DNA of 64,000 bases, from assembly GCA_963782525.1 (NCBI GenBank), contig CAWAKC010000001.1, positions 64,001-128,000 of the forward strand, in the 5' to 3' direction. The DNA comes from Candidatus Bathyarchaeota archaeon. GTDB lineage: Archaea > Thermoproteota > Bathyarchaeia > Bathyarchaeales > Bathycorpusculaceae. The notes under the pieces are model-generated. The model was not told the origin of the DNA and searched no databases. It worked only from the letters and a program-made list of their open reading frames with translations. The translations under genes were made by a program, and so were the position numbers. Positions 1 to 31,612 of this stretch are shown here, piece after piece. Position 1 is the first letter of the stretch. Every line of letters begins with the position of its first letter.

Positions 1-2
1 GA

Positions 3-584
3 TTGTATATTCAATCACCATACGATTCAAAATATTCTGGCTCTCTAAGCAAATCTATTCCACTTTGGATTGAAGCAGGTCTTCCAGCAGGTGCGCCAGC
101 AGTTGTTTCCATTAGCTACAGTCTTGATGGACGTGCAAACGTTACCTTTCCTAAGTTGACACATGAGACGTATTATCCTACCCCTTGCAATGTTCCGATG
201 AATCCTGACATTTATTTTAATAGGGATGTAACGTTGGATAATTTAACTGATGGAACCCATACGGTAAAAGCTTATTCTCTTGATGCCAATGGTAATGAAA
301 TGTCGGCTTCAGTAGTTTTTACAGTTAGCTCATATTTTGATCCAGACATTTATACTAAGGGAATTTATCCATCACCAACCCCAATAGTTAAGGCGGAACC
401 AACTAAGATTACAGAAACCCCAACCACAAACCCATTAACTGCTTCTCCAACTCCAGATCAAGGCATAGATTCTAATTATTGGGTAAATCCAATTGCTCTT
501 ATTGCAATTGCTTCTGTGATTGTGATTATAGCTGTAACTTCAATCTCCTTGGTTTACTTTAGGAGAAGGAAGGGGAAGCCATGA
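3..584 (+). CDS. Array surface protein, Ig-like domain + P/T stalk + C-terminal TM anchor (5'-truncated by window edge)
   Basis: YSLDG and LTDGTHTVKAY framework motifs, PT-rich linker, TM + YFRRRKGKP tail. Confidence 0.85.
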   Translation: MYIQSPYDSKYSGSLSKSIPLWIEAGLPAGAPAVVSISYSLDGRANVTFPKLTHETYYPTPCNVPMNPDIYFNRDVTLDNLTDGTHTVKAYSLDANGNEMSASVVFTVSSYFDPDIYTKGIYPSPTPIVKAEPTKITETPTTNPLTASPTPDQGIDSNYWVNPIALIAIASVIVIIAVTSISLVYFRRRKGKP

Positions 585-1261
585 AGAGAAGATATGCTGC
601 ATTTGTTGCAATCTTTGTTGTCTCAATATTGACTGGGATACAAGCAGTGGAGGATGTGAATGCTAATCCAGTTCCTCCTCCTTGGATGAATGCAAAACTC
701 TCGGTTACTATTGAAAGCCCAGCAAACGGCTCAATCCAAAGTCGGTCATTTCTGGTTAGGTTTCATGCCGATGGCTCTCAATTTTCACTCACAAATAGTA
801 GCATTGGAGGTTATGGTGGAGATTTCTTCTATATTTTAGATAGTCAACAATGGAGCGATATGCGTTATTCAGGAGCAAAAATATGGGATACCAAAATTGA
901 CGATAACCATAATTTTACCGGACAAGTTTACCTGAGTAATATTGCTGCGGGAAGCCATTCCATAACCGTCTATTGGGGGGTAAAAGTCAACGTTGGAATA
1001 TTAACTGATGCAGCTTGGGCTGGAACTTCACAATTTAGTGTGGACTCAAAGTTGACACCCCAACCAACAAACAACCCAACAGCAACCCCCACACAAACAC
1101 TCTATCCATCACCATTAGAAATCTCATTGCCAACGGCAAATCCGACCGTGACTTACTTGTTGACAAATTCAACGTTTCTAACTGCAATAGTTGTTGTAAT
1201 TGCAACAGTGGCAATTGCTTCAATCTCAATAGTTTACTTTAGAAGAAGAGGGAAGCCATGA
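581..1261 (+). CDS. Array surface protein (signal peptide-ANP, Ig-like core, TM anchor)
   Basis: ATGA overlap with upstream gene; MKRRYAAF signal peptide; IESPAN and GSHSITV motifs; YFRRRGKP tail. Confidence 0.9.
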   Translation: MKRRYAAFVAIFVVSILTGIQAVEDVNANPVPPPWMNAKLSVTIESPANGSIQSRSFLVRFHADGSQFSLTNSSIGGYGGDFFYILDSQQWSDMRYSGAKIWDTKIDDNHNFTGQVYLSNIAAGSHSITVYWGVKVNVGILTDAAWAGTSQFSVDSKLTPQPTNNPTATPTQTLYPSPLEISLPTANPTVTYLLTNSTFLTAIVVVIATVAIASISIVYFRRRGKP

Positions 1262-1899
1262 AGAGAAGATATGCTGCATTTGTTGCAATCTTTGTTGTCT
1301 CATTATTGATTGGGATACAAGCAGTTGAGGTAGCAGATGCTAATCCGTATGGGTTTACTTTTCCCACCAGTACCTCTCCACCTGACGCCTTTGTTGTTTC
1401 CATCAAAGTCCTAAGCCCAAAAGAAAATGCAACCTATACAACTGATACAATCAACGTTTGCTTCACCAAAGAAGTCAATAGCCTCCCTGGAATAACCACC
1501 TATGTGCATATAATAAGCACTTATCAGGGAGATTGGATGAACAGCAGTAAATGGTGCCCCTTCCCACCTGGGGCAGATGCGGAGCATTGGAACAGTTTTC
1601 AGGTCTTACAGCACAACTTTACCCTTACCCAAGTACCCCAAGGATACCACACGCTGACCATCGACGCTGAGGGACAAGGGAATTATAATGTAAACGGAAC
1701 AGAGTATAACTTTGGCCTCCAAAAGAAGGTAGACGTGCACTTCTACATAGATTCAAAGAATAATCAAACTTCAAATCCTGCTACCATAAATCCAACTCCC
1801 TCAATCCCAGAGTTCTGCATAGCAAGCGCCATATCTGTGCTAGCTGTTGCGTCTGTTTGTTTGGTTTCCTATAAGAGGCGCAAGCCTAAAACCGCTTAG
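1258..1899 (+). CDS. Array surface protein with IPEF motif before TM
   Basis: ATGA overlap; same signal peptide family as 581; YQGDW-type core; PSIPEF + TM + KRRKPKTA. Confidence 0.9.
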   Translation: MKRRYAAFVAIFVVSLLIGIQAVEVADANPYGFTFPTSTSPPDAFVVSIKVLSPKENATYTTDTINVCFTKEVNSLPGITTYVHIISTYQGDWMNSSKWCPFPPGADAEHWNSFQVLQHNFTLTQVPQGYHTLTIDAEGQGNYNVNGTEYNFGLQKKVDVHFYIDSKNNQTSNPATINPTPSIPEFCIASAISVLAVASVCLVSYKRRKPKTA

Positions 1900-1904
1900 G
1901 CAAA

Positions 1905-2246
1905 TCACTGTGGGTTGGCTTGCTGGTTAAAAGTTGATGGGGGTCTGTCGAGTTCTACCTTAATGTATCTGTCGACTAAGATTGTGGCTAATGCTATAGT
2001 AACTATCGAAATAAGGATAAGTGAGCCAAGATATAGTGGATTTTTTGTGAATAGCCAAGAAGTAAGTAACAGCGCTATGATCCCTCCTGTTAACCCGCCA
2101 CCGGCTGCGCCAATTGCGCTGTTGGTGCCCTTGTTCTTTACGCTCACCCTTGCTTTGCAAACTTGGCAGGTTATGGAGTTAAGGTTTGTTAGGAAGAAGA
2201 TTTTACGGTACTGAAGTTTGCTACCACAATTAGGGCAAATTACCAA
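1905..2246 (-). CDS. Small zinc-ribbon membrane protein, inverted within the array
   Basis: CPNC...CQVC motif followed by two hydrophobic helices. Confidence 0.75.
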   Translation of the reverse strand: MVICPNCGSKLQYRKIFFLTNLNSITCQVCKARVSVKNKGTNSAIGAAGGGLTGGIIALLLTSWLFTKNPLYLGSLILISIVTIALATILVDRYIKVELDRPPSTFNQQANPQ

Positions 2247-2310
2247 GATATCCCCGCTTTAGTTTAATCGTACTCTGCTTATAGTTTTTTCAGTCAAAGG
2301 GTCCAAAATG

Positions 2311-2365
2311 AAGGAAATGTAAAACTTCATAAGGCAACAGTAACCAATAGCGATTGTTGGATATG
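2311..2365 (+). repeat. Intergenic repeat A copy 1 (probable promoter + RBS)
   Basis: AATGTAAAACTTCATAAGGCAACAG-AACCAATAGCGATTG; recurs near 6209, 7526, 14022, 15548. Confidence 0.9.
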
Positions 2366-3001
2366 AGTAGAATAGCTGTTTTAGCTGTACTTCTTACAGT
2401 CTTTATATTGGTTGGCATAGGAGTAGTTGGTATAGCAGATGCTAACCCCTTTGCTTTCTATTCACCTATCGAACCAATCCAAGGAACAATTCCGCCAGTC
2501 ATCACCATTTATAGTCCAAAAAACGACTCAATCTATCCAGGCTCAATTGACGTTGGCTTTAACGTTAGCAAACCAGAATTAGAAGACGCATACTTGACAA
2601 ACGTTGTTAGCGTTACCTACTCTTTAGATCAAAATGAAAGCATTGAAGTCTACTCCAACTACATCCAAGGACATGGGACAGAAGGAATACCAGCGTTTAA
2701 CACGACTTTTACGTTACCTCCGTTGCAAGCTGGAAATCATAAGTTAACAGTGACAGCAACTGGAGTAGTGCTAAAAGCACTAGTACCGAAACCTCAAGGA
2801 TTTGGAGACATAGGCGTTTTTTACGTAAAAAGCAACTCAACAATCCTTTTCATGGTAGGCACTCCAACGATACCGCCACAAGCTTCAGCTAACACACTTG
2901 AGCCAATATTGCTTATTGCAATACTTGGGATAGTGACGATAGTAATTGTTGCGGCAGTCTTATTGGTTTTCTTTAAGAGGCGTAAGTCTAAAACTGCTTA
3001 G
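2363..3001 (+). CDS. Array surface protein
   Basis: ATG at end of repeat A; ADANP; IYSPKN, YSLD, AGNHKLTV; TM + KRRKSKTA. Confidence 0.9.
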   Translation: MSRIAVLAVLLTVFILVGIGVVGIADANPFAFYSPIEPIQGTIPPVITIYSPKNDSIYPGSIDVGFNVSKPELEDAYLTNVVSVTYSLDQNESIEVYSNYIQGHGTEGIPAFNTTFTLPPLQAGNHKLTVTATGVVLKALVPKPQGFGDIGVFYVKSNSTILFMVGTPTIPPQASANTLEPILLIAILGIVTIVIVAAVLLVFFKRRKSKTA

Positions 3002-3110
3002 CCAAAACCTTGACTAACCCCAGACAAGAAAGTTTGACAATAAACCACTTAAGCAAACTCTATCTCTTAATAGCAATAGGAAGGTATATGCCAAAGAAAC
3101 TGTTGGCAAC
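3001..3110 (+). repeat. Intergenic repeat B copy 1 (probable promoter + RBS + MPKKLLA start)
   Basis: AAACCTTGAC...CAAGAAAGTTTGACAATAAACCACTTAAGCAAACTCT...GGAAGGTATATGCCAAAGAAACT; recurs near 8472, 11375, 18638. Confidence 0.9.
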
Positions 3111-4059
3111 AACAATCATCATTGCAACAGTCATAGCGTCAGTCGTTAGCACACTTGGTATTGAGACAGTGAATGCCAATCCCTTCCCCATGTCTACTAT
3201 GGGAATTGGTTCCCCACAAAGTTATACCACGTTCATCTATCAAAATACAACTATTCCTCTCACAAATGCATTAAATCTTTGGAAGGATGATACTTCAGGG
3301 GCTTATCCTCAAATAACTCGCGTTACGTACAGTTTGGATAATCACGAGAACATAACAATATCAGAAATTCCCAAGTCAGGAACAGAAACCCCTCAAAGAA
3401 ACATTTTTGGGACAATTAAAGGATATATTCTTACTATATTAGTTAAAGCAACACTAACCAATCTCTTAGAGGGCAAACACACACTCAATGTATATTCATT
3501 TGATACTACAGGTGCAGCATTGTCAGATTCTGTTACCTTTGCTGTTTTAACCTCCTATAGTATACCTGAAGTGACAATTATTTCGCCTCAAGACCAAGTC
3601 TACAGAACCAGCGAAATCCCATTAACTTGCGCTGTAAAAGGAGATTATGAGCAGCTACGTTATACAATAGATTACCAGTATAACGTGACATTTTCGAGAA
3701 ATACAACCATAAACATATCGGGCTTACAAAATGGATGCCACACGATAACCGTTCATGCCACCACTCCTGGACGCTATGGCGGTTCAAGTTGGACCTACTT
3801 TATTGTTGGCACGATAAATTATTCCCTGCCAAATCCCACGGCTTACCCAACCAACCCTGCCCCTTCACCAACAGAAACAATCAATTCTACACCAAGCCCA
3901 ACCTCAAGCCAGAGTATGCCTACAATTAACACAGGTGCTACATTGCCTGTTGAGTTGAATCTCCCCATAGTCTATATCGTACTAGCTATCGTAATTGTAA
4001 TAGTGGCTGTTGCTTCAATCTCACTGGTTTATTTTAGGAGAAGAAAGGGGAAGTCATGA
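3088..4059 (+). CDS. Array surface protein, two Ig-like domains (MPKKLLA type)
   Basis: Start reassigned to ATG 3088 by homology with 8558 and 11450; two SP..Y / GxHTL units; PTINTG..LPVELN linker; TM. Confidence 0.9.
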   Translation: MPKKLLATTIIIATVIASVVSTLGIETVNANPFPMSTMGIGSPQSYTTFIYQNTTIPLTNALNLWKDDTSGAYPQITRVTYSLDNHENITISEIPKSGTETPQRNIFGTIKGYILTILVKATLTNLLEGKHTLNVYSFDTTGAALSDSVTFAVLTSYSIPEVTIISPQDQVYRTSEIPLTCAVKGDYEQLRYTIDYQYNVTFSRNTTINISGLQNGCHTITVHATTPGRYGGSSWTYFIVGTINYSLPNPTAYPTNPAPSPTETINSTPSPTSSQSMPTINTGATLPVELNLPIVYIVLAIVIVIVAVASISLVYFRRRKGKS

Positions 4060-4817
4060 AGAAAAAATATCCTTTATTTGCAGTAATCTTTGCAGTTTCA
4101 ATGTTGATTGGGATACAAGCAGTTGAGGTAGTGGATGCTAATCCGGTTCCTTGGCAGTTCACACCTAATCTAGAAAAGCCATTTTTAACAGTGATGGGTC
4201 CTCAAAACCTAACGGCCTATCCTACTTACAATATTCCAATTACTTATTCAGTGGTCAAACCTAGCTCATGGGATGCAACCTATTGGTATTGGCAATATAT
4301 TGGAGAGATAGATTCAGTTGATGTTAGGATGGATGGAGAACCTGTTGCTTACTATACAAAGTCCCAAGATGTTACTTATCAAGGTGGAATCAATAAAACG
4401 GTGTACCATTCAGAATCAGAAAAAAACCTATTAAACAATACAATAACACTCAATCAAACAACTATTGGTTTCCATACACTAAGCATTACCATTCTTTCCT
4501 ACACCTATTACAAGGGTCCTCTCTACTCAAATACTGACACTAAAACTTCTACAACCTCAAATGGGCAACCAATCTATCAACACCCAGTAATTGTATCTTC
4601 AACCATGTCCTTCACTATGAATTCAAATGGTTTGATTATTATTGCTCCAACTTCAACTCCTACTCTTAGTCCTACTGTAGAACCCCCAACCTCAGCTAGC
4701 GAAAATCCATCTATGGCTTTTTCTTCAAGCAATTTAGTAATAATAAGTTTGGTTGTAATAGTGGCAGTTGCTTCTGTCTCATTGGTTTACTTTAGGAGAA
4801 GAAAGGGAAAGACATGA
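4056..4817 (+). CDS. Array surface protein (ANPVPW subfamily)
   Basis: ATGA overlap; GIQAVEVVDANPVPW; TM + YFRRRKGKT. Confidence 0.9.
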   Translation: MKKKYPLFAVIFAVSMLIGIQAVEVVDANPVPWQFTPNLEKPFLTVMGPQNLTAYPTYNIPITYSVVKPSSWDATYWYWQYIGEIDSVDVRMDGEPVAYYTKSQDVTYQGGINKTVYHSESEKNLLNNTITLNQTTIGFHTLSITILSYTYYKGPLYSNTDTKTSTTSNGQPIYQHPVIVSSTMSFTMNSNGLIIIAPTSTPTLSPTVEPPTSASENPSMAFSSSNLVIISLVVIVAVASVSLVYFRRRKGKT

Positions 4818-5395
4818 AGAGACTTAGGTTAATGCTGACAGCATTATCTCTTTGCTTGTTGGTTGGTTGTTTGATGAGTATTGAAGTGGGAGAGGCTAAC
4901 CCTTTCATTTTCAATAAAATAATGGACCCAGTTGAAGGCACCATTCCCCCTGATATCTCTATTCTAAATCTAAGAAATCAATCAACTTACTCAGATGTAA
5001 TTAACGTGAATCTTCATGTAGATAAGCCTAGGTTGAATTCATCTTGGGCTTCTATAACATCCGTATATTACACGTTAGACTCAAATAAAAAAGTAGAAGT
5101 CTATTACTGTCTTGCCAATGGAGCGAAAACCAAAGGAGTTCAAGAGTATGATAATGCCTTTAACTTATACTTCTTGAGTGCAGGAAATCATAGCTTAACC
5201 ATAGAAGCAAATGGAGTAGTGATGCCCAATGGTGAGGGCTTGAGTTCAGACTTGTTCTGGATTAGCAGCAGCTCAACAATCAACTTTAATGTTGGAAACC
5301 AAGCCTTTCTCATAACAACAATTGTTTTAATTATTTTAGTACTGACTGCTTCCTTTCTGTTAGTTTACTTTAAAAGAAGGAAGAAGAAGCTATGA
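4814..5395 (+). CDS. Array surface protein (RLRLMLTALSLC signal type)
   Basis: ATGA overlap; core similar to the 2363 gene; TM + basic tail. Confidence 0.9.
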   Translation: MKRLRLMLTALSLCLLVGCLMSIEVGEANPFIFNKIMDPVEGTIPPDISILNLRNQSTYSDVINVNLHVDKPRLNSSWASITSVYYTLDSNKKVEVYYCLANGAKTKGVQEYDNAFNLYFLSAGNHSLTIEANGVVMPNGEGLSSDLFWISSSSTINFNVGNQAFLITTIVLIILVLTASFLLVYFKRRKKKL

Positions 5396-6159
5396 TAAGA
5401 AGAACTGCTCCGTTTGCTGCAATACTTGCAATCTCAATATTGATTGGGATACAAGTTGTTGAGGTAGTAGATGCTAATCCTGTTCCTTGGCTGTCTACGC
5501 CTAACCGAGAAAAACCTACTCTTACCCTTCAATTTCCAACAAATCAAACAACGTATAAAACCGAAGTTCCTGTCGACTTTAATGTGACTGCGCCTGAATC
5601 GTGGGCTACATACGCTACGCGATTGGTTGGAACCAATCACTATGTTGGAGAAGTGAAGTACATCGCGGTTTACTTGGATTCCAAACCTCTCATCAATTAT
5701 ACTACGGGCAGAATCGTGTCATATTTTTACGGAAACAAGACAAACTATTATATTAGTGGATTTGACGGTAAAAGTGCTCATTATTCGTTTAACTTGAATC
5801 AGACTACCTCTGGAAACCATGCGCTTAATGTTACTGTTTTCTCCTATACATATGCGGATGGAGACCCCACCGATGACACTGCCATTGCTTTCGAAACTGG
5901 TTTAATCAACGGCGAACCCATCTACGCGTACAAGTACCCTAATGTCGTTTCTGAAGTAGTTCACTTTACGGTAGAGCAACCAACCCCAACCCAAAATCCA
6001 AATGCTAACGGCTCTGCTTATTTGCTAAATCAAACAAATCTTATTTTGATAGCTATTGTGATTGTAATATTGGCTGTTGCTTCAATCTCGTTGGTTTACT
6101 TTAAGAGAAGAAAGGGCAAGCTGACAAGTAAGCCAGCCATAGTAAGAGAACCCAAGTAA
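5392..6159 (+). CDS. Array surface protein (ANPVPW subfamily)
   Basis: ATGA overlap; ANPVPW; tail identical to the 13220 gene. Confidence 0.9.
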   Translation: MIRRTAPFAAILAISILIGIQVVEVVDANPVPWLSTPNREKPTLTLQFPTNQTTYKTEVPVDFNVTAPESWATYATRLVGTNHYVGEVKYIAVYLDSKPLINYTTGRIVSYFYGNKTNYYISGFDGKSAHYSFNLNQTTSGNHALNVTVFSYTYADGDPTDDTAIAFETGLINGEPIYAYKYPNVVSEVVHFTVEQPTPTQNPNANGSAYLLNQTNLILIAIVIVILAVASISLVYFKRRKGKLTSKPAIVREPK

Positions 6160-6241
6160 GCAAACCCTACTTCTATTAGCCCATAACACTAACGGCTCCG
6201 CTTAACGTAAGGAATGTAAAACTTCATAAGGCAACAGCAAC
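6028..6241 (+). repeat. 214-bp direct repeat copy 1 (includes repeat A copy 2)
   Basis: Reads identical by eye to 13841-14054. Confidence 0.92.
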
Positions 6242-6260
6242 CTAACGCTAATTGGTGGAT

Positions 6261-7418
6261 ATGAGAAAGCTATTGTTGGTTTGCATAGTGATTGCGGCTA
6301 TTGCGATTTTGAGCATAGCAATGGCTGAGACCGAAAATTTTCCAGCACTCACACCTGCAGCTACAGCTTCGCCTTCACCTACAGCAACACCAACACCTAC
6401 GCCAACAATAGAACCAGGAAGCAATCTCACGTCTATCCCGATTAGTGTTCCATATGATTTCAAAATATCCGCTATTTCCAGCTTTAACATAACTCAGGGC
6501 AATTCCATGACTACCCAAATAGGACTATCAACAATTAGCGGAAATGCTTCAAGTGTAGATCCGCAGGATATCCTATGGAGAGCAGATAGCGGTTCAAGCG
6601 ATATGCACTTCGATTTCAAGACGTCATATAGTTACGAAAACGAATATTGGGCAATTTATTTTCCTGATAGATTCACCCCTAATGGTTTTAGTTGTATGCT
6701 CACGATTACTGTTCCAATTTCAACACCTACTGACAGCTATGGCATAAATATAACAGCTAAAATAGGCTCAAATAGTCACAGCATTTCTATGCTGGTTTCA
6801 GTTCCAAGTGCTACAGTTAGCGTTTCGGGAACAGTCGATACAAGCATCTTAGGCATAACCCCCTCCCAAATTGCATTTCGAGACCAAGCATACCCAAACA
6901 CTTACATCTACAAGGGAACACTAACAGGAAACACTTATTCAATTTCTGTTCCCAACAACCGAGAGTATCTTGTTATGATTAGTGACAGTACTGGATCTGT
7001 AAGCGGCTTAGGATGGTCCAACTGGATTAGTGATTCGTGCAGTGTAAAAGTACCTGTTGGAAGTACAGCGATGACCAAAGACTTCACGGTTCCCCCAAAA
7101 TCGGTCAATCCAATCGTTACAGTTTCGGGATCAATCATCGATGGCATCTCAGGCATAAAGTGGTCTCACTTGCAATTTCAAAACAGAGCAGCGCCTGCTA
7201 AAGTCTACTATGGGTCAATAACTGAAAGCGGAACATATTCGATCGACCTTCCAAATTATAGCGACTATCAGGTATGTATTGATAACGGCACAGCACCTTG
7301 GCATCTTGTTGAAATCGATTTCTCGGTGAAAGTCCCTGCTGAAAGAGTGACGCTGACCAAAGATTTCACGGTACTCCAACCTGTCACTTTCCCTGACCCT
7401 GACAAAATAAACCGTTGA
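6261..7418 (+). CDS. Secreted or N-anchored protein with PT linker and tandem beta-rich repeats
   Basis: ATG after repeat A with GGTGG RBS; N-terminal hydrophobic helix; duplicated VSG...TYSI..PN...VKVP...TKDFTV unit; no C-terminal TM. Confidence 0.85.
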   Translation: MRKLLLVCIVIAAIAILSIAMAETENFPALTPAATASPSPTATPTPTPTIEPGSNLTSIPISVPYDFKISAISSFNITQGNSMTTQIGLSTISGNASSVDPQDILWRADSGSSDMHFDFKTSYSYENEYWAIYFPDRFTPNGFSCMLTITVPISTPTDSYGINITAKIGSNSHSISMLVSVPSATVSVSGTVDTSILGITPSQIAFRDQAYPNTYIYKGTLTGNTYSISVPNNREYLVMISDSTGSVSGLGWSNWISDSCSVKVPVGSTAMTKDFTVPPKSVNPIVTVSGSIIDGISGIKWSHLQFQNRAAPAKVYYGSITESGTYSIDLPNYSDYQVCIDNGTAPWHLVEIDFSVKVPAERVTLTKDFTVLQPVTFPDPDKINR

Positions 7419-7525
7419 GCCCAGAAATACAGATAAATTGCCGGCCGACTGATTAAGCAGTTCTGTTAACTATTTTTACTGTCTCTTTGCTTATCTTGAG
7501 AGACAGAGTCTAAACTTGCCTATGC

Positions 7526-7578
7526 AGGAATGTAAAACTTCATATGGCAACAGCAACCAATAGCGATTGGTGACTATG
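7526..7578 (+). repeat. Intergenic repeat A copy 3
   Basis: AGGAATGTAAAACTTCATATGGCAACAGCAACCAATAGCGATTGGTGACTATG. Confidence 0.9.
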
Positions 7579-8472: not shown

Positions 8473-8580
8473 CCGAAACCTTGACAAACCCTATCCAAGA
8501 AAGTTTGACAATAAACCACTTAAGCAAACTCTGTCTCATAATAGCACAGGAAGGTATATGCCAAAGAAACTCTTGGCAAT
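8472..8580 (+). repeat. Intergenic repeat B copy 2
   Basis: Near-identical to 3001-3110. Confidence 0.9.
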
Positions 8581-10781: not shown

Positions 10782-11328
10782 ATTAATGCTAACAGCATTA
10801 TCTCTTTGTTTGTTGGTTTGTTGTTTTACTATTGTTGAAGTGGGAGATGCTAACCCCTATAGTTACCCTTCATTATGGATAGAATCACCTAAAAACACAA
10901 TTTACAATACAACAGATGTCAAAATAGCATTCCACACAGACACACCAATTAGATACCCAGAAATTGTTAAAATGTCTTACAGTCTTGATGGTACAGCCAA
11001 CACAACACTAAGCATCTCAAAGACGCAGACCTTCCAGTTTGGAAGTTTTAGCGCTAGCTCACGCATTTCATACGTAGGAACAGGACTTTTAACGGATCTC
11101 AGCAATGGCACTCATTCACTTGACGTGTATGCACTTGATTCTAAAGGCACAACAATGACCTATCCCACAGGAAGAACTTTTCAGGTAAATATTACCCCTA
11201 AAAATGAACAGCCTCTACCAATAAGCAACATAACAATCATTCTAGTGATAACTATAACTGCTGTGACAATAAGCTCAGTTTTAACCGTCACACTTCTTAA
11301 TAGAAAAATGAAGAGAGCCAACAAGTAA
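10771..11328 (+). CDS. Array surface protein (RLRLMLTALSLC signal type)
   Basis: IESPKNTIY, YSLDG, NGTHSLDVYA; TM + basic tail. Confidence 0.9.
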   Translation: MRLRLMLTALSLCLLVCCFTIVEVGDANPYSYPSLWIESPKNTIYNTTDVKIAFHTDTPIRYPEIVKMSYSLDGTANTTLSISKTQTFQFGSFSASSRISYVGTGLLTDLSNGTHSLDVYALDSKGTTMTYPTGRTFQVNITPKNEQPLPISNITIILVITITAVTISSVLTVTLLNRKMKRANK

Positions 11329-11374
11329 GCAAAGTTCTCTCTAATTTGGTAGTGTTACTAATCATCGAGAAGCC

Positions 11375-11485
11375 TTGCTTATCTTAGAAAAGCAGGTTTA
11401 ACAAAAAGCACTTAAGCAAACCTATTCTGATAGCATAATAGGGAATTAGATGCCAAAGAAACTCTTGGCAACAACAATCATCCTT
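11375..11485 (+). repeat. Intergenic repeat B copy 3 (diverged)
   Basis: CACTTAAGCAAAC core and ATGCCAAAGAAACTCTTGGCAACAACAATCATC start. Confidence 0.75.
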
Positions 11486-12319
11486 TTGATAGCAATTACT
11501 ATGTTACCCTTAACTCCTGTCGCACGAGGAAATTTTATTCCTCCTACAAGTCCTGAAATTATAATTCTTGAACCAAAACGTCAGAACGTTATAATCTACG
11601 AAGACACGCCTATTCCCATAATAGTAACTATAACGGAGCCAGAAAACGTTTCACACTACCACCAAATCACTAACATCACCTATAGCATAGACGGAAAACC
11701 AGAAGTGGAAATTACCAACATAACAAAGAAGACCAATCAGGCATATTTTAGCGGAAAAACAGCCACTGATTATCTTGCATACGCTACCATAGACACCGTT
11801 GAAAGAGGCAGCCATATCTTATCGGTTTATGCCCTCGATGATGCTGGAAACCGTTTGCCAACAAAAACAGGATTTGCATACCAAAGCATTGACAAATATC
11901 CAAACGTCACCATTTTTTCTCCCTTAAATACGACCTATTTTAACACAACCAAATTGACCCTAAATTACACGGCTGATAACTTCATAATGGCATCTTATTC
12001 TTTGGATGGTGTAGACAATGTTTTTTATGACGCCCAAAATGGAACTGTGCACTCACGCTCAGGACTAAACAACGGAGAGCATACAATTCTGCTACGTGTA
12101 TCTACTGAATTTGGATGGTTCTCACAAACAATCAAATTTGCGGTATATGGAGCAGATTTCCAGGCACATTATCAGAATCTACCACTGATACCTTCTAGAG
12201 AAACTTCCGATAGAAGCCCAGTCCCGATTGTTTTGATTATCGTGGTTGCGGTTGTGGTTTTTTCAATTGGGGGTTTGCTGGTTTTCCTTAGGAGGAAGGG
12301 AATTAATGAGGCAAAGTAG
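11450..12319 (+). CDS. Array surface protein, two Ig-like domains (MPKKLLA type)
   Basis: Paralog of the 8558 gene; YSIDG and YSLDG; TM + RRKG. Confidence 0.9.
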   Translation: MPKKLLATTIILLIAITMLPLTPVARGNFIPPTSPEIIILEPKRQNVIIYEDTPIPIIVTITEPENVSHYHQITNITYSIDGKPEVEITNITKKTNQAYFSGKTATDYLAYATIDTVERGSHILSVYALDDAGNRLPTKTGFAYQSIDKYPNVTIFSPLNTTYFNTTKLTLNYTADNFIMASYSLDGVDNVFYDAQNGTVHSRSGLNNGEHTILLRVSTEFGWFSQTIKFAVYGADFQAHYQNLPLIPSRETSDRSPVPIVLIIVVAVVVFSIGGLLVFLRRKGINEAK

Positions 12320-13223
12320 TGCTCTTTTTGCCGCGGTATTTCTGGTCTCAATGTTGATTGGGATACAAGCAGTTGAGGTAGTAGATGCTAATCCTTACAT
12401 GTTCCTGCAATTTACAAGAATAAAGATTCATTCGCCTCAATCCCATGTCTATGTTTGTCCTAACGTAGACTTATCTTTTGACTATTACACAGAAACTAAT
12501 TCGCCCAAAGTTGATTCTTTCTCATATAGCTTAGATGGCAAAGCTAACTCTACATTGGTTAGTAGCAAATCAAGTATTCTTCATTTTATCAAGTATTCTG
12601 TCTTTAAGACTTTAGAAAACTTATCCAACGATAATCATAAGCTAATAGTTTATGCTCATTTTTCTAACAATACAGTATTTTCAATTTTGGACCAAAAAAT
12701 AGTTGTAGACACAGCATACATTCAACCCACTCCCTTTATGATTTCTCCTTTAAACCAAACAACGTATAATGCTAGAGAAATAGATGTAGCTTATACAATA
12801 GATGCAAAAATATTCTATTATAGGTATGACTTAGATAACAGATATAACAAATATTATGATTCTTCTAAATCAATAAGTGTTAATGATAGTGCAACCTTAA
12901 CTAACGTAGGTCTTGTGGGCAACACAACGTTAATTAACCTCTCTGACGGTTCCCACAAGCTAAAATTAATTTTGACAATACAGCCCTATGAACGCTATTA
13001 CTCTGAAACATGTTTTGTAACAGTCTACTTTAATGTGGATTCAGATGAGCCAAGTCCAAGTCTAACCCCAAATACTACTGCCTTGATGCCCACTGTAAAT
13101 AGTGGTCCATATGTAGATTTGGCTATGAGTTATTTTCCATATATCGTTGGATTGGTTGCTGTTGTAATTGTACTCATTGTGGGCTTATTGGTTTACTTTA
13201 AGAGGAGAAAGGGGAAGCCATGA
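12306..13223 (+). CDS. Array surface protein, two Ig-like domains
   Basis: Start reassigned to ATG 12306 (MRQSSALF...GIQAVEVVDANP); TM + YFKRRKGKP. Confidence 0.88.
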   Translation: MRQSSALFAAVFLVSMLIGIQAVEVVDANPYMFLQFTRIKIHSPQSHVYVCPNVDLSFDYYTETNSPKVDSFSYSLDGKANSTLVSSKSSILHFIKYSVFKTLENLSNDNHKLIVYAHFSNNTVFSILDQKIVVDTAYIQPTPFMISPLNQTTYNAREIDVAYTIDAKIFYYRYDLDNRYNKYYDSSKSISVNDSATLTNVGLVGNTTLINLSDGSHKLKLILTIQPYERYYSETCFVTVYFNVDSDEPSPSLTPNTTALMPTVNSGPYVDLAMSYFPYIVGLVAVVIVLIVGLLVYFKRRKGKP

Positions 13224-13972
13224 ACCGAAAATATGCTGAATTTGCTTCAGTGTTATTGGTCTTTTTTGTTATTAGTGAATTTGGCAGCTTTTTTGCTGCT
13301 GCAAACTGGGCGCCCATCTATGCTAACGTAGAAATCTCACCTCAGAGCGTTGGGGCAACACCGCCAACTATCACCTTTCTATCTCCCGAAAATGACCGAA
13401 CATATGGAAGAAACCTAACGTTGCACTGCAACATAAGCGTTGGAACCGTTTCCCACCAAAACATGTCTTGCGGCATAGAAAACCTCTACTATCAAGCAGA
13501 CTGGGAAACTCAACCGACAAAGGTCATACGGCTGCAGTTAAGCAAGGACGGTTATGAGTGGGATACGATAATAACAGGCACCGTAAACTCTGACTTTACC
13601 GAATACTCAAACAACCTAACAGCCCCCACTGAAGGAAAACATAGCATAACCTTCTGGGCAGCTGAAAAAGGAAGCTACCAAGTGGACATTGGAAAACAAT
13701 TCCCCGCAGAGAGAATAAACGTCTACACCTTCCATATCAACAGTTCCCAAACAGTAGCTTTCACCGTGAGCAACTCTCCACCAGTTGAGCAACCAACCCC
13801 AACCCAAAACTCAAACGCTACTGAGTCCGATTATTTGCTGAATCAAACAAATCTTATTTTGATAGCTATTGTGATTGTAATATTGGCTGTTGCTTCAATC
13901 TCGTTGGTTTACTTTAAGAGAAGAAAGGGCAAGCTGACAAGTAAGCCAGCCATAGTAAGAGAACCCAAGTAA
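13220..13972 (+). CDS. Array surface protein (core like 7576, tail identical to 5392)
   Basis: ATGA overlap; YQADW, EGKHSITFWA, YTFHINSSQTV. Confidence 0.9.
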   Translation: MNRKYAEFASVLLVFFVISEFGSFFAAANWAPIYANVEISPQSVGATPPTITFLSPENDRTYGRNLTLHCNISVGTVSHQNMSCGIENLYYQADWETQPTKVIRLQLSKDGYEWDTIITGTVNSDFTEYSNNLTAPTEGKHSITFWAAEKGSYQVDIGKQFPAERINVYTFHINSSQTVAFTVSNSPPVEQPTPTQNSNATESDYLLNQTNLILIAIVIVILAVASISLVYFKRRKGKLTSKPAIVREPK

Positions 13973-14054
13973 GCAAACCCTACTTCTATTAGCCCATAAC
14001 ACTAACGGCTCCGCTTAACGTAAGGAATGTAAAACTTCATAAGGCAACAGCAAC
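13841..14054 (+). repeat. 214-bp direct repeat copy 2 (includes repeat A copy 4)
   Basis: Reads identical by eye to 6028-6241. Confidence 0.92.
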
Positions 14055-14222
14055 TGAACTTGATTTGATTCTTGCTATAACTACGAATTATTTAACGCGT
14101 TGTTGAAATTGCTATCGCTAAAGGCAGGAAAAAAACGCTCCAGCATTGCTCAAAATTGTTTCTATGTGCAAACAAGCAATCTGTCGACATGTTCAAATAT
14201 GGTGAGTTATCGTGTGTTTCAT

Positions 14223-15542
14223 ATGAGAAAGGGCAACGCAGCAGTAATCATTTCTGTAATTATGATGAGCGTAACATTTTTTGCAGAAGAAACTTTGGTA
14301 ACGGCTAACCTGAATCCACCAGCAATCGAATGGAGCAAGAGCTATTCCTACGGCACGTACAGTGGAATCTACGCTATGATTCCAACAGCGGACGGCGGCT
14401 TCGCTTTGGGTGGCACTGTAACTCAGTTGGGTACGCCTGGAGCGACTACCAGCGATATGTGGCTGCTCAAGGTTAACTCCCAAGGCGATAAGCTGTGGGA
14501 ACAAGGCTTAAGCAGTGCATATCTCAATTTGGGGGGAATCGTCTCCCTTGTTCAAGCCGATGATGGTGGATACGTCTTAGCAGGCGAATCAGTGTTCGGC
14601 AGCTCGCATCTTGTCAAGACCGATTCGTCAGGTAATGTAGTTTGGACTCGGGCCTACGATAACATAGCTTTACAGACCGTCATAAAATGTCGAGATAATG
14701 GATATGCAGTCGCTGGCACAATTAACAATGGCAACTCAGACTTCTGGCTGGCTAAAATTACAGAATCCGGCGCAATGCAATGGAATCAAACTTACGGAGG
14801 CATAAACATTGACTTGTGCAACTCACTAATTCAAACTAGTGACGGTGGCTTTGCGCTTGCAGGTTCAACCTCTAGCTTTGGTTTAGGAAATGCAGACATG
14901 TGGCTAATCAAAACTGATAGTTACGGTTCAATGGTTTGGAACCAAACATATGGCACTCAAGAGAACGATGCTGCAGATTGTGTGATTCAAACCACTGATA
15001 ATAATTACGTGTTATCAGGATACACGATGCACACCTCAGGAAACAATTTTGAATCTTTTGCATTGTCTATGATTAAAACTGATTCCTCTGGTAAGGTTCT
15101 TTGGAGCAAAACCTACAGCCAACACATCGATACCACGTATTTATCTGTAATCAAGACGAAGGATAGCGGGTATGCTCTAGCAAGCGATTTTGGGATTATA
15201 AAAACCGATTCGTCGGGGGCAATTCAGTGGAGCCTACCCTATGGAGGGACGTATTCCCTAATTCAAATCGACAACGCCTACATCCTCGCTGGCACCACTT
15301 CTGGTTCGTCAGCAGCAAGCGGCTGGATAGCGAGCACAACTGAAACACAGACTATAGTTTCTCCGAGCACTCAGCCTGCCACATCCTCAAGTCCAACCTC
15401 TGCAGTGACACCGACAACACCTATAACTGGGCTATTATTCTATCAAGAAACCATGATAGCGGTTGCTTCTATGATCATAATAATAGCCGTTGCTTTTGTC
15501 ATATTCGTTTATTACAAGAGGCGTAAGTCTAATGCCGCTTAG
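14223..15542 (+). CDS. Membrane-anchored beta-propeller repeat surface protein
   Basis: Repeated DGG(F/Y)xLAG...WLxKxDSxG...WxxTYG blades; signal peptide-ANL; TM + KRRKSNAA; start reassigned to 14223. Confidence 0.88.
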   Translation: MRKGNAAVIISVIMMSVTFFAEETLVTANLNPPAIEWSKSYSYGTYSGIYAMIPTADGGFALGGTVTQLGTPGATTSDMWLLKVNSQGDKLWEQGLSSAYLNLGGIVSLVQADDGGYVLAGESVFGSSHLVKTDSSGNVVWTRAYDNIALQTVIKCRDNGYAVAGTINNGNSDFWLAKITESGAMQWNQTYGGINIDLCNSLIQTSDGGFALAGSTSSFGLGNADMWLIKTDSYGSMVWNQTYGTQENDAADCVIQTTDNNYVLSGYTMHTSGNNFESFALSMIKTDSSGKVLWSKTYSQHIDTTYLSVIKTKDSGYALASDFGIIKTDSSGAIQWSLPYGGTYSLIQIDNAYILAGTTSGSSAASGWIASTTETQTIVSPSTQPATSSSPTSAVTPTTPITGLLFYQETMIAVASMIIIIAVAFVIFVYYKRRKSNAA

Positions 15543-15547
15543 CCAAA

Positions 15548-15600
15548 AAATGTAAAACTTCATAAGGCAACAGCAACCAATAGCGATTGGTGGATATATG
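15548..15600 (+). repeat. Intergenic repeat A copy 5 (directly abutting upstream stop)
   Basis: TAGCCAAA-AAATGTAAAACTTCATAAGGCAACAGCAACCAATAGCGATTGGTGGATATATG. Confidence 0.9.
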
Positions 15601-16455
15601 CGCAGTTTATTGTCGCTGCTGACAATTCTGGTCCTACTCGGGGCAACTGCAGGCATGTTTTTACCCGTTAATGCTAACCCGAATCTAATTTTAGATCCAG
15701 TTCCAAGTGCGCCGGCTCCAGCGGGCGTCCAAATCATCTTTGACATGGAGGCCCCAAAAGAAAACGCAACATACGTCAACGGAACAGTTAACGTGGTCTT
15801 CAACGTAACAGTTGACGGACCAAGTCAAATTAACGGACAACCGCTCAACAAGCACCTTATGTTGACGACCTACCAGGGAGATTGGATGCAAAAAAGTGAA
15901 TGGGCGCCTTCGAGGATTTTCCAAACCTTACAATTCTACCCATATAACTTTAGCATCTTTGGCATACCATTTGGAGAGCATACTCTAAACTTCACGACCC
16001 ATGCACAAGGCAATTTTGTCTTAGCAAATTACTCTGGTCGCGTTTATAATCTGGAAAAAACCATCTCTTGCAAGTTCTTTGTTCTCGCAAATCCCATTAT
16101 TGAATTCTCTTTACCTCAAAACGCCAACTCCACAACCTCGTCTTTTCCCTTGAACTTCACCATTGACCACCCTGTTACAGAAATGTCTTACCGGTTAGAT
16201 GGGCTAGAATCCGTTCCAATCACCGGAAACACCACGTTAACCGACCTACATTATGGTCAACATAATGTTACTGTTTACGCAACCGACGAGTTTGGCTATA
16301 CTGGCAAATCAAACACTCTCCTCTTCAACGTTAACTCTCCAGAGGTTGGAGAATTTTCATTGGTGCCCTCGGTGGTTCCTTTCGCGATTGCCGCCATCGC
16401 GTTAACTGTTGCCGGCTTGTCGGTTTATTTTAAGAGAAGAAGAGGGAAGGTATGA
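15598..16455 (+). CDS. Array surface protein, two Ig-like domains
   Basis: First domain like the 1258 gene (KENATY, TYQGDWM); second YRLDG...GQHNVTVYATD; TM. Confidence 0.9.
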   Translation: MRSLLSLLTILVLLGATAGMFLPVNANPNLILDPVPSAPAPAGVQIIFDMEAPKENATYVNGTVNVVFNVTVDGPSQINGQPLNKHLMLTTYQGDWMQKSEWAPSRIFQTLQFYPYNFSIFGIPFGEHTLNFTTHAQGNFVLANYSGRVYNLEKTISCKFFVLANPIIEFSLPQNANSTTSSFPLNFTIDHPVTEMSYRLDGLESVPITGNTTLTDLHYGQHNVTVYATDEFGYTGKSNTLLFNVNSPEVGEFSLVPSVVPFAIAAIALTVAGLSVYFKRRRGKV

Positions 16456-17057
16456 AGAGTAGGATACCTCTTTTTACCGTGATACTTGCAATCTCATTAT
16501 TGGTTGGAGAATTAAACATTGAAGTAACAAATGCTAACTTTTATCCAATCCCTTCAATATACATCATAGGTTACAATCCAACCTATCCAAATGGCAACAA
16601 CTATACCTTCACTGTGGAAGCGCATATTTCTATGGATGCCCCAGGAATTGTTTCCATCAGCTACAGCTTAGATGATAAAAAGAACATCACCTCTTCTAAC
16701 TTAAAATACACCACTTGGATGAAAGATAATGGACCAAACAATCACCAAATTTACTCCATAACAGAATACCTCTATAACTTAGAGATTGGAAACCACACAA
16801 TCAATGCTTATGCAACGGATTCAACGGGAAAAGTACAATCAACTAATCATCAGTTTACAGTGGACAACTCAAATATCTCTAATTCAATTACTCCAACTAT
16901 AAGCCAAAACCCCCCAACAATTAACACCGGTCCCAAAACGCAAGTTGGGTTAAATCATTCTATAGTCTATATCACACTGGCCCTTGTGATTGTGATAGTT
17001 GCTGTTGCGTCAATCGCATTGGTTTACTTTAAGAGGCATGAGTGTAGAATGCCTTAG
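16452..17057 (+). CDS. Array surface protein
   Basis: ATGA overlap; ANFYP; SISYSLDD, GNHTINAYA; PTINTG linker; TM. Confidence 0.9.
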   Translation: MKSRIPLFTVILAISLLVGELNIEVTNANFYPIPSIYIIGYNPTYPNGNNYTFTVEAHISMDAPGIVSISYSLDDKKNITSSNLKYTTWMKDNGPNNHQIYSITEYLYNLEIGNHTINAYATDSTGKVQSTNHQFTVDNSNISNSITPTISQNPPTINTGPKTQVGLNHSIVYITLALVIVIVAVASIALVYFKRHECRMP

Positions 17058-17101
17058 AAACTATGGTTTGACGAAAAGCACAAAAACCAACCAATAAATA
17101 A

Positions 17102-18541
17102 ATGATCAAGATGACTGACAAATCATTATCGGCATCGCATGCGATATCTGGACAGACAATCCAAGAGGTAGCCGCATTATTTCTTGCTGTTCTTGTAATC
17201 TCGGCAATATTCGCTAATAGCGGATTGGCGAATGCACAGTCAACACAATGGAGCGAGTCATTCTCCTATAGCTATGGCAGCGGAAACTCAATAAACCGAT
17301 GTACCGATGGAAACTATGTGATCGCCGGAGAAAGCAACAGCCAATTTCTTATGGCAAAGGTCACACCATCTGGTGACTTGCTATGGTGGAAGGCCTACCA
17401 GAACGGTAAAGCCAATTGTGTCATAGGCACTTCTGATGGCGGGTATGTCCTAGTAGGGAGTGGCGATGTAAACTTCATCAAGACTGATTCGACAGGCAAC
17501 CTGCAGTGGACTAAAGCGTTTAACAAAAATGGCGTTTCCTTTTAAATCGAAAGCGCCATACAAACATTGGACGACGGATACCTTCTTGCCGGCTACACAC
17601 CCGCAGGAAATACACCCAGTTGGGATTGGACCTTAAAAATTGATTCAAACGGAAATAGCCTTTGGAATAAAACCTATGGAACTCGGTCTGGGCAATCATT
17701 AGCAACAGCTGTTGTTGAGGAATCGGGCGGATACGTTCTTGCTGCCAATAGCCAACTCTACAAATTGGATAACGAAGGGGCAGTACTATGATACCAATCA
17801 ACCGCACTTGCGAGTTCACTTGTAAAGACTGCCGACGAAGGGTACCTCTTAGCTTCTTCTACTGGTTCTATATTGGTTAAATTTGGGTCTGATGGCAACA
17901 TTTCATGGAGTAAAGACTTAGCTTACCCTCCTAACCCCAAGAAGATGCCCACAAGTTCTCCGACTTTTCTCCATTCAGCGATTCAGGCTCAAGACGGTGG
18001 CTATCTAGCTGTTGGAATGGCATTTCCTCTCTATGATGGGGTAGCTTGGATGGTTAAGACTGATTCAGCGGGTAACCAAGTATGGAATTGCGCATCTGAG
18101 GATTATACTGGGCACAACTGCAACATCAACGCAATAGTTGAATCGGCTCCCGGCGAGTACATATTAGCAGGTTCAATCTCCAGCGTAACAAACGGCGCCT
18201 ACAGGGAGGTTTGGATTGCCAAAGTCTCAAACACCATTCCATTGCCATCCAGCATCCCCTCGCCCAACAGCCCTGCAACTACACCGAAACCGGACCAAAC
18301 GACAACGCCGATGCCAACTAGCGGTTTGTCTCCAATACCAAATGTTAATCCAAGCTCCATAGAAAAGACACCCACAAACCCTAAAACAACACCTTCACCA
18401 ACCTCAAATCAAACCGCCGTATCAAATTTCTCATCTAACTCAATAGCACAAGTTGCAATAGCTTCCTTCGCTATTCTAATAGCGATTATTTCGACGTTAT
18501 TGATCTACAGACAGCTTAAGTTAAAGACCACTAAGAAATAA
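17102..18541 (+). pseudogene. Beta-propeller surface protein interrupted by two in-frame stops
   Basis: ORFs 17102, 17567 and 17873 share one frame; TAA 17543-17545 and TGA 17789-17791; same blade repeats as the 14223 gene. Confidence 0.82.
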
Positions 18542-18637
18542 GCAAATCATCATAAGGCGACAACACGCAGCTAAGCCAATTGAACTAAGAAAGCTGACTC
18601 CGCACGCTTTCTTCTGTTACCCTCTGTCTTTTTGTCA

Positions 18638-18705
18638 GCCAAAAACTTGACTAACCTTAGACAAGACAGTTTTATAAAAAACCACTTAAACAAACATAAC
18701 TCAAA
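18638..18705 (+). repeat. Orphan repeat B copy 4 at array end (no downstream gene)
   Basis: GCCAAAAACTTGACTAACCTTAGACAAGACAGTTT...AACCACTTAAACAAAC. Confidence 0.75.
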
Positions 18706-26860: not shown

Positions 26861-26866
26861 TTTTTA

Positions 26867-29941: not shown

Positions 29942-30005
29942 CCTGTGTTCTGCTCTAATGTTCTCCTTGCTCCTCCAATCAAGCACTTCTATGCGCTTTT
30001 TACTT

Positions 30006-31497
<1,492 letters not shown>

Positions 31498-31612
31498 TAT
31501 GCACTCCATATTGATTTCTGCGGATCTTTACTATCATGTTTTTTGTGTGGTACGTTCTGCACTTTTCGCATATCTATGCCTAACTGGATTTGGAGGAAGA
31601 AACATCCACATT

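Follow-up and report, generated by a model that had tools for sequence, protein, structure and literature searches.

A tandem array of variable immunoglobulin-like surface-protein genes in a Bathyarchaeota genome, with conserved gene junctions as probable tracts of homologous recombination

Tandem surface-protein genes in which a conserved nucleotide segment recurs between variable parts have been described in bacteria, and the locus considered here is an archaeal array of this kind, at the left end of a stretch of 64,000 nucleotides (the window, forward strand) of a Candidatus Bathyarchaeota archaeon genome (GCA_963782525.1, hereafter G000; contig CAWAKC010000001.1, hereafter C1; window C1:64001-128000). 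In Staphylococcus aureus, the lpl cluster of the nuSa-alpha island is made of tandem paralogues, each unit of which carries a conserved segment that serves as a site of homologous recombination; in the part of that report drawn on here (Tsuru and Kobayashi 2008, PMC2568036), the variable parts that flank the segment have incongruent phylogenies, and the deletions, conversions, translocations and substitutions seen among genomes are explained by unequal crossing-over, by excision and reintegration of circles and by exchange between strains. In Borrelia hermsii, the variable vmp genes are bordered at their 5' and 3' ends by the UHS and DHS sequences, which are proposed crossover points in the section of PMC6011951 that deals with them.

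For archaea, two precedents are of particular relevance. The VARTIG proteins of Thermococcales are immunoglobulin (Ig)-fold proteins that are hypervariable by recombination between genes of related organisms; the passages of that paper that concern them (Makarova et al. 2021, PMC8416519) also describe multi-gene PKD loci of Methanosarcinales, encoding mosaic surface proteins whose terminal parts are conserved or homogenised, and state that comparable Ig variability was not found outside Thermococcales. As portrayed there, VARTIGs are multi-Ig proteins of at least 1000 residues whose C-terminal Ig domain is hypervariable and whose downstream genes vary, whereas the array comprises many one- or two-domain proteins of 185-439 residues. 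In Haloquadratum, a variable surface island carries glycoprotein genes that differ between co-existing lineages by homologous recombination and mobile elements, which the authors see as a response to viruses (PMC4535781, in the portion devoted to the island); its content of heterogeneous large glycoprotein genes and envelope-synthesis genes contrasts with the single small family, tandem arrangement and constant junction modules of the array.

The locus is an archaeal variant of this known kind, and it encodes an undescribed and very diverse family of Ig-like surface proteins. The explanation that we consider probable is that a lineage-specific family of small type-I membrane proteins, arranged in tandem, has its variable cores shuffled by general homologous recombination at conserved junction modules. 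An initial annotation, made from the letters of the sequence, had presented the array as a candidate new system; that claim is not supported, as no dedicated machinery was found and the same logic is published for lpl (PMC2568036), with archaeal precedents (PMC4535781, PMC8416519), as far as the relevant parts of these papers go. No description of the family, or of such arrays in Bathyarchaeia, was met in the literature searched, which did not extend to the supplementary multi-Ig loci of PMC8416519; these may bear on novelty.

The two genomes on which most comparisons rest, G000 and its closest relative G010 (baseline nucleotide identity ~90%), are both metagenome-assembled, with contigs of 616 kb and 396 kb, respectively. 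The array had been reported to be open at the left window edge, and the run indeed continues: it covers ~29 kb, made up of window 1-18541 and a leftward extension to ~C1:53639 that likewise encodes secreted, transmembrane-tailed proteins. Twenty-four gene models, all on the plus strand, were established, 22 in window 1-18541 and two (g00a and g00b) to its left; statistics are given for 20 of them, excluding g00a (no A-N motif), g09 (no transmembrane tail) and g21/g22 (a single split gene). A typical member has a Sec signal peptide, an Ig-like core, a P/T/S linker, a transmembrane helix and an aromatic-basic tail, the ends being constant and the middle variable. The co-orientation, signal-peptide ends and tails noted by the initial annotation are confirmed: the signal peptide ends in A-N-[PFWL] in 18 of the 20 models and in E-N-F or G-N-F in the other two, and the tail is exactly YF(K/R)RR in 11, a near variant in seven (FFKRR, YYKRR/K, SYKRR, YFKRH, YFKKH) and deviant in two (g14 and g15). 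A transmembrane helix, attributed to nearly all the proteins, is present in most members, g09 being without a transmembrane tail. Neighbouring genes are frequently overlapping (ATGA overlap in nine of 21 pairs, overlap of 11-14 nt in two more).

This layout has eukaryotic parallels: Giardia VSP proteins, Plasmodium RIFIN/STEVOR proteins and conotoxin precursors combine a constant signal peptide and/or a transmembrane helix and short tail with a hypervariable middle. The likeness is one of layout, the array family having no homology with these proteins; the tail of one window protein matched RIFIN at 17.4 bits, below the cut-off of 32.

At the DNA level, direct repeats cluster in the tails, the junctions and the signal peptides: a 62-nt tail recurs 15 times, a 75-nt tail/start junction nine times, and sequences of 101 nt and 177 nt, each comprising a tail and the next signal peptide, eight and six times, respectively. 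The identity reported between 573-625 and 1250-1302 is exact (53/53, with an exact run of 53 nt). That similarity was confined to the junctions is true only in part, since a few core-to-core repeats (D13, D15, D16) are present as well. Three kinds of junction module can be distinguished. In the first, a YF(K/R)RR(K)GK tail overlaps the start of a class-A (MKRRYA..IGIQAVEVVDANP) or class-B (MKRLRLMLTALS..) signal peptide; the second consists of a KRRKSKTA-type tail, a spacer of ~85 nt and an MPKKLL signal peptide (repeats D10-D12); the third is formed by D8, an element of 45-56 nt located immediately before the ATG of g04, g09, g10 and g19, together with the signal peptide. The 29-mer that opens D8 occurs eight times in the genome (at most four mismatches), always on the plus strand and within C1:58327-79549; seven copies lie upstream of an ATG opening an open reading frame (ORF), at 18-20 nt with one at 144 nt, while the eighth has no such ORF within 150 nt. 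With this placement, D8 looks like a locus-specific promoter and leader candidate. It places a GGTG 3-4 nt before the ATG, which could pair with the 3' end of 16S rRNA (...GGATCACCTCCT). The purine-rich tail codons were also considered as a possible Shine-Dalgarno site for the next gene; the AGGAG of the tail, ~15 nt from the ATG, is too distant for a canonical site. A scan of window 1-24000 against Rfam gave no match. The genes and junction elements of the array are the following (window coordinates).

1-584, plus strand: g01, 3' part in the window (start at window -99); MPKKLL-type signal peptide, Ig-like core, transmembrane helix and YFRRRKGKP tail.
581-1261, plus strand: g02; class-A signal peptide, ATGA overlap with g01; its start region holds the first copy of the exact 53-nt repeat.
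1258-1899, plus strand: g03; class-A signal peptide, core not close to that of g02, KRRKPKTA-type tail ending a coupled run.
1905-2246, minus strand: zinc-ribbon-like ORF of 113 residues, the sole other ORF of note in the array.
2316-2371, plus strand: D8 element; window copies at 2316, 6213, 7529, 14026 and 15549.
2363-3001, plus strand: g04; first gene after a D8 element, weak Big_7 match.
2939-3123, plus strand: type-2 junction module; copy at 8410-8593 (81%), partial copy at 11394-11499.
3088-4059, plus strand: g05; two-domain member, MPKKLL-type signal peptide.
4056-4817, 4814-5395 and 5392-6159, plus strand: g06, g07 and g08; trio joined by ATGA overlaps.
5971-6246, plus strand: 276-nt tract common to g08 and g17, 95% identical to 13784-14059 (D6); spans linker, transmembrane helix, tail and 87 nt downstream.
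6261-7418, plus strand: g09; secreted protein of 385 residues after a D8 element, no transmembrane tail, no Pfam family.
7576-8472, plus strand: g10; two-domain member after a D8 element.
8558-9403, 9400-10104, 10101-10781 and 10771-11328, plus strand: g11 to g14; four-gene block common with G010, 96.8% over 2.9 kb.
11450-12319, plus strand: g15; two-domain member, MPKKLL-type signal peptide.
12306-13223, plus strand: g16; core 96-100% identical to that of a G010 gene with a signal peptide of another class.
13220-13972, plus strand: g17; core nearest to the first domain of g10, tail of the same kind as that of g08.
14223-15542, plus strand: g18; beta-propeller-like core (weak SBBP-repeat match) in the usual frame of signal peptide and tail.
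15598-16455 and 16452-17057, plus strand: g19 and g20; right-flank homology with G010 starts in the g20 tail at 16973.
17102-17545 and 17873-18541, plus strand: g21/g22; one beta-propeller-like gene, split in the assembly, with PT linker and transmembrane tail.

The minus-strand ORF at 1905-2246 has weak double-zinc-ribbon matches (18 bits, below cut-off), a hydrophobic C-terminal half and no counterpart in G010. Another small ORF, of 119 residues, lies between g00b and g01 (C1:63390-63749, window -610 to -251); it has no signal peptide and no counterpart in G010 either.

Short conserved borders proposed to act as crossover points around a variable body are a feature that the array would share with the Borrelia vmp genes. 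Where the account of that system in PMC6011951 has one expression site, ~60 silent copies and non-reciprocal conversion during infection, the array has complete ORFs and eight promoter-like D8 elements; the layout of one expressed copy with promoterless or truncated silent copies was not found, the array genes being complete ORFs with start codons.

The constant ends and the variable cores of the array proteins have decoupled histories. Over the 190 pairs of the 20 models, median amino-acid identity is 0.30 for signal peptides, 0.19 for cores and 0.38 for tails; identical residues are encoded by the same codon at frequencies of 0.52, 0.39 and 0.52, where 0.41, 0.365 and 0.41, respectively, are expected from the codon usage of each region. 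Since codon sharing exceeds expectation at the ends and is near it in the cores, the ends are either younger or kept alike as DNA, and the cores are near saturation. The statement that mature domains are barely alignable is thus right as to their median identity of 19%, and has to be amended in that the cores are homologous all the same, with a common Ig-like scaffold (alignment A1) and subfamilies of up to 37% identity. The nearest neighbour by signal peptide is also the nearest by core in one gene of 20, and the same figure applies to tail and core (Mantel r 0.24 for signal peptide against core and 0.29 for tail against core). The signal peptides of g02 and g03, for instance, are 90% identical in nucleotides, with the same codon at 22 of 24 identical residues, despite which the nearest core of g02 is that of g00b and the nearest core of g03 that of g04; likewise, g08 and g17 have the 276-nt tract in common, and their cores are nearest to those of g06 and g10, respectively.

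The comparison with G010 shows cores in different frames and a turnover of genes between close relatives. The G010 locus was found through the PUA-domain gene to the right of the array; its flanks are collinear with those of G000 (left 94.6-97.9%, right 95.7% nucleotide identity), and it holds ~9 genes against at least 22 in G000, namely a g00a-like, a g16-like and a g03-like gene, g11-g14, three unrelated ORFs, a g08-like and a g21/22-like gene. No close G010 counterpart exists for g00b, the 119-residue ORF, g01, g02, g04-g07, g09, g10, g15 and g17-g20. The g03 counterpart (86% nucleotide identity) is located behind the g16-like gene, and the g21/g22 counterpart is broken too, at another point than in G000. 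All 11 ends of homology tracts inside the array fall in junction zones (signal peptide, last 110 nt, or spacer), which make up 31.6% of the array. In g16, sliding identity passes from ~45% to 96-100% at 12396, the A-N-P codons, the signal peptide upstream being of class A in G000 and of the D8 class in G010; in g08, it steps up at 5468 and drops near 5980. The g08-like gene of G010 is a mosaic: its leader and signal peptide resemble those of g00b (84.7%), its core that of g08 (88.6%) and its tail that of g20 (95.7%). The g16 and g03 tracts in G010 overlap by 42 nt, exactly at the tail/start junction. The proposal that junctions act as exchange points is supported by these data. The initial annotation had also named two observations that would speak against it, identical gene order and content in related strains and saturated synonymous sites in the junctions; gene order and content differ in G010, and the junction synonymous sites are not saturated.

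Synonymous divergence (dS) between G000 and G010 is 0-0.02 in the left flank, 0.02 in g13, 0.06 in g12 and g16, 0.18 in g08, 0.36 in g03, 0.37-0.38 in the right-flank PUA and histidine-kinase genes and 0.69 in the surface gene at C1:53639. With a dS of 0.02-0.36 from one cassette to another, the cassettes differ in age. The island is 95-98% identical between the two genomes, against a baseline of 89-91% away from it, and forms a patchwork in which some segments are old and others recently shared, consistent with exchange between lineages. Three side observations concern the same genome pair. The left flank C1:44001-53451, with its non-surface genes (49877-53211), has a dS of 0-0.02 to G010 for a baseline identity of ~90%, which suggests a recent transfer of at least 10 kb between lineages. 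To the right, G010 contains ~3.8 kb extra between the counterparts of window 22305 and 22346, including the gene of a secreted protein of 485 residues with a transmembrane tail. The three ORFs unrelated to the G000 array occupy ~3 kb between the g14-like and g08-like genes of G010, and two of them are on the opposite strand.

The elevated identity of the island would also be expected if the array were the cargo of a mobile element, spread between species as a block and variable because the element exists in several versions. The candidate marker of such an element is the right neighbour of the array, not counted in it:

19453-21942, minus strand: P4-family primase (TIGR01613, E 4.9e-56).

The primase is directly to the right of the array in both genomes (the G010 counterpart is 95% identical and split into several ORFs), and in other species of the genus the arrays are located elsewhere, away from the PUA-gene anchor. 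Against cargo status, no integrase was found within ~50 kb, no integrase or tRNA lies close to the primase, no tRNA is present in the window, and similarity varies by cassette (dS 0.02 to 0.69) and not block-wise. We consider block-wise spread quite improbable as the source of the variability; mobility of the locus can, for its part, be combined with recombination at the junction modules.

Beyond G010, a profile built from 11 members has 45 matches in G000 and matches 17 of 18 other genomes of the genus (1 to 37 per genome), while 12 genomes from other families of the order gave weak matches only, in four of them; among the genomes searched, the family is largely restricted to one genus. The junction motif was found in 10 genome-contig stretches, nine of them from five Candidatus Bathyarchaeota metagenome-assembled genomes (MAGs). 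The tenth is on a contig of ~8 kb (L023) in a MAG labelled Gammaproteobacteria; this contig is mostly high-G+C and bacterial-looking, has a pair of family genes, both with class-A signal peptides, at one end, and is probably chimeric. In clusters at 50% identity, 3557 representatives match the profile at E<=1e-3, 1368 at E<=1e-10 and 52 at E<=1e-30. Among the 150 matches listed, 123 are of at most 360 residues, and these include 108 with [AG]-N-x in residues 16-50 and 68 with an aromatic-basic tail.

The codons of the constant ends are conserved across species. Identical residues of class-A signal peptides use the same codon at a frequency of 0.83 within genomes and 0.82 between them, and those of tails at 0.63 and 0.75, respectively. 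Between G000 and the genome G002, the same codon is found at 105 of 125 signal-peptide residues (0.84), against 120 of 272 (0.44) in right-flank housekeeping orthologues; the same housekeeping control against G000 gives 0.60 for G001, 0.54 for G012 and 0.79 for G010. As the pairs are not independent, P values are given no weight.

These figures bear on the plainest alternative, an ordinary birth-and-death of a secreted family in which junctions are kept by the needs of export, anchoring and coupled translation and recombination is incidental. Constraint at the protein level does act on signal peptides and transmembrane tails, ATGA overlaps suggest coupled translation, the ratio of nonsynonymous to synonymous divergence (dN/dS) is below 1, and class-A signal peptides are as well conserved between species as inside one genome. 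Against this alternative stand junction synonymous sites that are not saturated, a same-codon frequency of 0.84 in signal peptides where the housekeeping orthologues of these two genomes give 0.44, cores of 96-100% identity behind signal peptides of different classes, and nearest neighbours by signal peptide and by core that agree in only one gene of 20. We regard this alternative as improbable, and recombination at the junction modules as the better account.

Metagenomes show the same cores in several frames. The exact 30-nt class-A motif is present on 16 metagenome contigs with diverse cores (g03-, g13-, g08- and g04/g07-like, and several at 34% identity or less to any G000 core). A g13-like core common to contigs L029 and L037 follows a class-A signal peptide in the former and an MPKK/class-A hybrid in the latter, and g03-like cores are preceded by five different upstream tails when metagenome contigs, G000 and G010 are taken together. 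Contigs of four sequencing runs from three studies were aligned at 88% likeness; 15 of 52 joints are listed, and among these 20 of the 26 joint ends in the array are in junction zones. The search of sequencing runs returned none with more than 14% of the sampled words and none recorded as RNA; the habitat labels of matching runs (wetland, soil, freshwater sediment) are based on small shares, only run X4 contains near-identical pieces, and array parts left uncovered by these runs carry no meaning.

The differences in gene order and the mosaics might in principle be unreal, repeated junctions having misled the assemblers. The junction repeats are 50-180 nt long, frames are broken in G010 and the contig L023 is visibly chimeric, as an artefact would predict. 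An artefact does not readily account for the length of the contigs (616 kb in G000 and 396 kb in G010), for a four-gene block of 2.9 kb and two flanks common to both genomes, or for mosaics of the same kinds on independent metagenome contigs, and is in our judgement exceedingly unlikely to be the explanation.

Several points nevertheless weigh against recombination at the junctions as the cause of the patterns described. Paralogue pairs are not independent, and as the junction zones were set after inspection of the data, the binomial P of ~3e-6 for the tract ends is indicative only. BLAST tracts tend to extend into whichever junction is conserved; selection for intact genes would by itself leave some of the breakpoints at gene ends; and several frames are broken in G010. 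The dN/dS of shared cassettes is 0.17-0.58, and there is therefore no signal of positive selection at the whole-gene level. Codon conservation is as high between genomes as within them, and hence does not indicate genome-specific homogenisation; the excess synonymous conservation could reflect either selection acting directly on the DNA or RNA or ongoing conversion and gene flow, and the data fit both. The contigs aligned at 88% likeness stem from related organisms, some of them may be chimeras assembled at shared words, and run X4 (24 of 45 contigs at 99% or more) gives no joint among the 15 listed, its pieces of ~240 nt being too short to bridge a junction.

As for the enzymes that would be responsible, an integron combines co-oriented exchangeable cassettes with an integrase and folded attC sites. 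The array resembles it in having co-oriented exchangeable units behind promoter-like elements, and differs from it in that no integrase is nearby, no folded attC-like sites are found and the crossover points are within coding sequence. Of eight genome matches to the tyrosine recombinase family PF00589, the one closest to the array on this contig lies at C1:2818-3339, ~50 kb from where the array begins; the genome, 95.8% complete, contains no match to the reverse transcriptase family RVT_1; and none of six junctions folds into hairpins better than shuffled sequences (z -1.2 to +1.0). The initial annotation was correct in seeing no attC site or reverse transcriptase, and its integron-like label is not sustained; readings of the locus as an integron, a diversity-generating retroelement or an invertase system were rejected on these grounds. 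More generally, a dedicated site-specific system of integron, shufflon or invertase type, whose recombinase would have gone unrecognised and would act on a short site in the A-N-P codons, the tail or D8, could be envisaged from the sharp identity jump at the A-N-P codons, the confinement of the D8 29-mer to the locus and the several contig joints that end at D8. We consider it very improbable: breakpoints are scattered over signal peptide, linker, tail and spacer with no single site, all repeats found are direct (no search was made for inverted repeats), and the recombinase, reverse transcriptase and folding results just given speak against it.

By comparison with these systems, lpl is the closest match for general recombination at the junctions. 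The array has tandem co-oriented paralogues and a recurring conserved nucleotide segment (15 tail and nine junction copies); incongruent parts around that segment, as measured by a nearest-neighbour agreement of one in 20; and rearrangement breakpoints in the segment (11 of 11 tract ends, for the one genome pair compared in full). In lpl, as presented in the part of PMC2568036 used here, the conserved segment lies in the middle of the ORF and the moving unit consists of a 3' variable part, a spacer and a 5' variable part; in the array, the segment is the gene junction and the unit is the mature domain. Further differences from the published description are the archaeal host, transmembrane-anchored Ig-like proteins in place of lipoproteins, and a junction conserved at synonymous sites across species.

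Regarding the proteins themselves, Pfam and NCBIfam scans of the array proteins gave no family above cut-off, with sub-threshold Ig-like matches (Big_13, Big_7) only. For Big_7 (PF17957), the best window protein, g04, scores 23.0 bits against a gathering cut-off of 24.1, and E<=0.01 is reached by 25 of 71 family members (best 2.2e-8). The structure that AlphaFold2 predicts for g13 from a 71-row alignment (pLDDT, the model's own confidence measure, 86.5) has a beta-sandwich between an N-terminal helix corresponding to the signal peptide and a C-terminal transmembrane helix; with this model, Foldseek returned generic Ig/FnIII-like domains only (best E 2e-3) and no functional lead. An earlier model from alignment A1 (11 rows; pLDDT 59.4) was not taken to the fold search. 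The beta-sandwich cores proposed at the outset are thus supported by the g13 model and do not extend to g18 and g21/g22, whose beta-propeller-like cores in the usual frame imply that the frame is not tied to one fold.

The ectodomains contain 2.76 N-X-S/T sequons per 100 residues, where the genome averages 0.70 and their composition predicts 1.46, and the array proteins are on this basis taken to be N-glycosylated surface proteins. No NCBIfam match to archaeosortase C-terminal signals (PGF-, PEF- and VPXXXP-CTERM) was obtained for the nine array proteins scanned; a PVELN motif precedes the transmembrane helix in some members only, and the two exosortase-family genes of the genome are both outside the array. 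One exosortase/archaeosortase-family gene (PF09721, 112 bits) adjoins an ORF of 285 residues ending in PEY, a transmembrane helix and a basic tail (G000:C9:4835-6747, minus strand); the two are possibly a sorting enzyme and its substrate, unrelated to the array.

Three other features of the window were recorded. A two-component cluster (hybrid histidine kinase, response regulator, histidine kinase and HAMP-PAS sensor) lies ~7 kb to the right of the array, at 25379-29535 on the minus strand. A complete archaeal 16S rRNA gene (RF01959, 1487.8 bits; 30006-31497, minus strand) accounts for the G+C peak of 0.527 at 30001-32000. Window 50001-52000 has a GC skew of -0.43 and an AT skew of +0.51 over an ORF of 642 residues (50037-51965, minus strand) with no Pfam family, probably a low-complexity repeat protein.

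The mechanism that would follow from recombination at the junctions starts from an array in which three kinds of junction module alternate with variable cores and several gene runs are headed by D8. The modules would be needed for anchoring, coupled translation and export and, being alike at the DNA level, would act as homology tracts. General homologous recombination at these tracts, by ordinary recombination proteins, would bring cores into new frames, produce mosaic genes and lead to gene gain and loss: unequal crossing-over would result in loss and duplication, repeated rounds of it or excision and reintegration in reordering, and double crossovers with DNA of relatives in replacement, with gene conversion also likely to be involved. 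The role of the junctions as recombination handles is supported by these comparisons of sequence on an evolutionary time scale. A stronger version, in which junction DNA is kept identical by selection for recombination itself, would make the array an evolved cassette-shuffling device and the first archaeal counterpart of programmed surface variation; its rearrangements would be frequent enough to give the cells of a single population different coats, and would draw on a cross-species pool of more than 1000 core types. We hold this version to be doubtful.

Although Bathyarchaeia abound in soils and sediments, next to nothing has been learnt about their cell surface. The products of the array would constitute a variable glycoprotein coat, whose variability may be selected by viruses or by recognition of cells or substrates; the initial annotation had suggested adhesins or virus decoys as their possible role. 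The locus offers a testable case of modular surface-protein evolution in archaea, in which the same ectodomain is exported and anchored through different frames, adjacent cassettes differ widely in age and the frames are conserved at synonymous sites across species. It extends the lpl model from bacteria to archaea, the conserved segment being here the gene junction, and qualifies the statement, as worded in the relevant passage of PMC8416519, that no comparable Ig variability was found outside Thermococcales. It may also bear on how viruses or cell-cell recognition shape archaeal envelopes.

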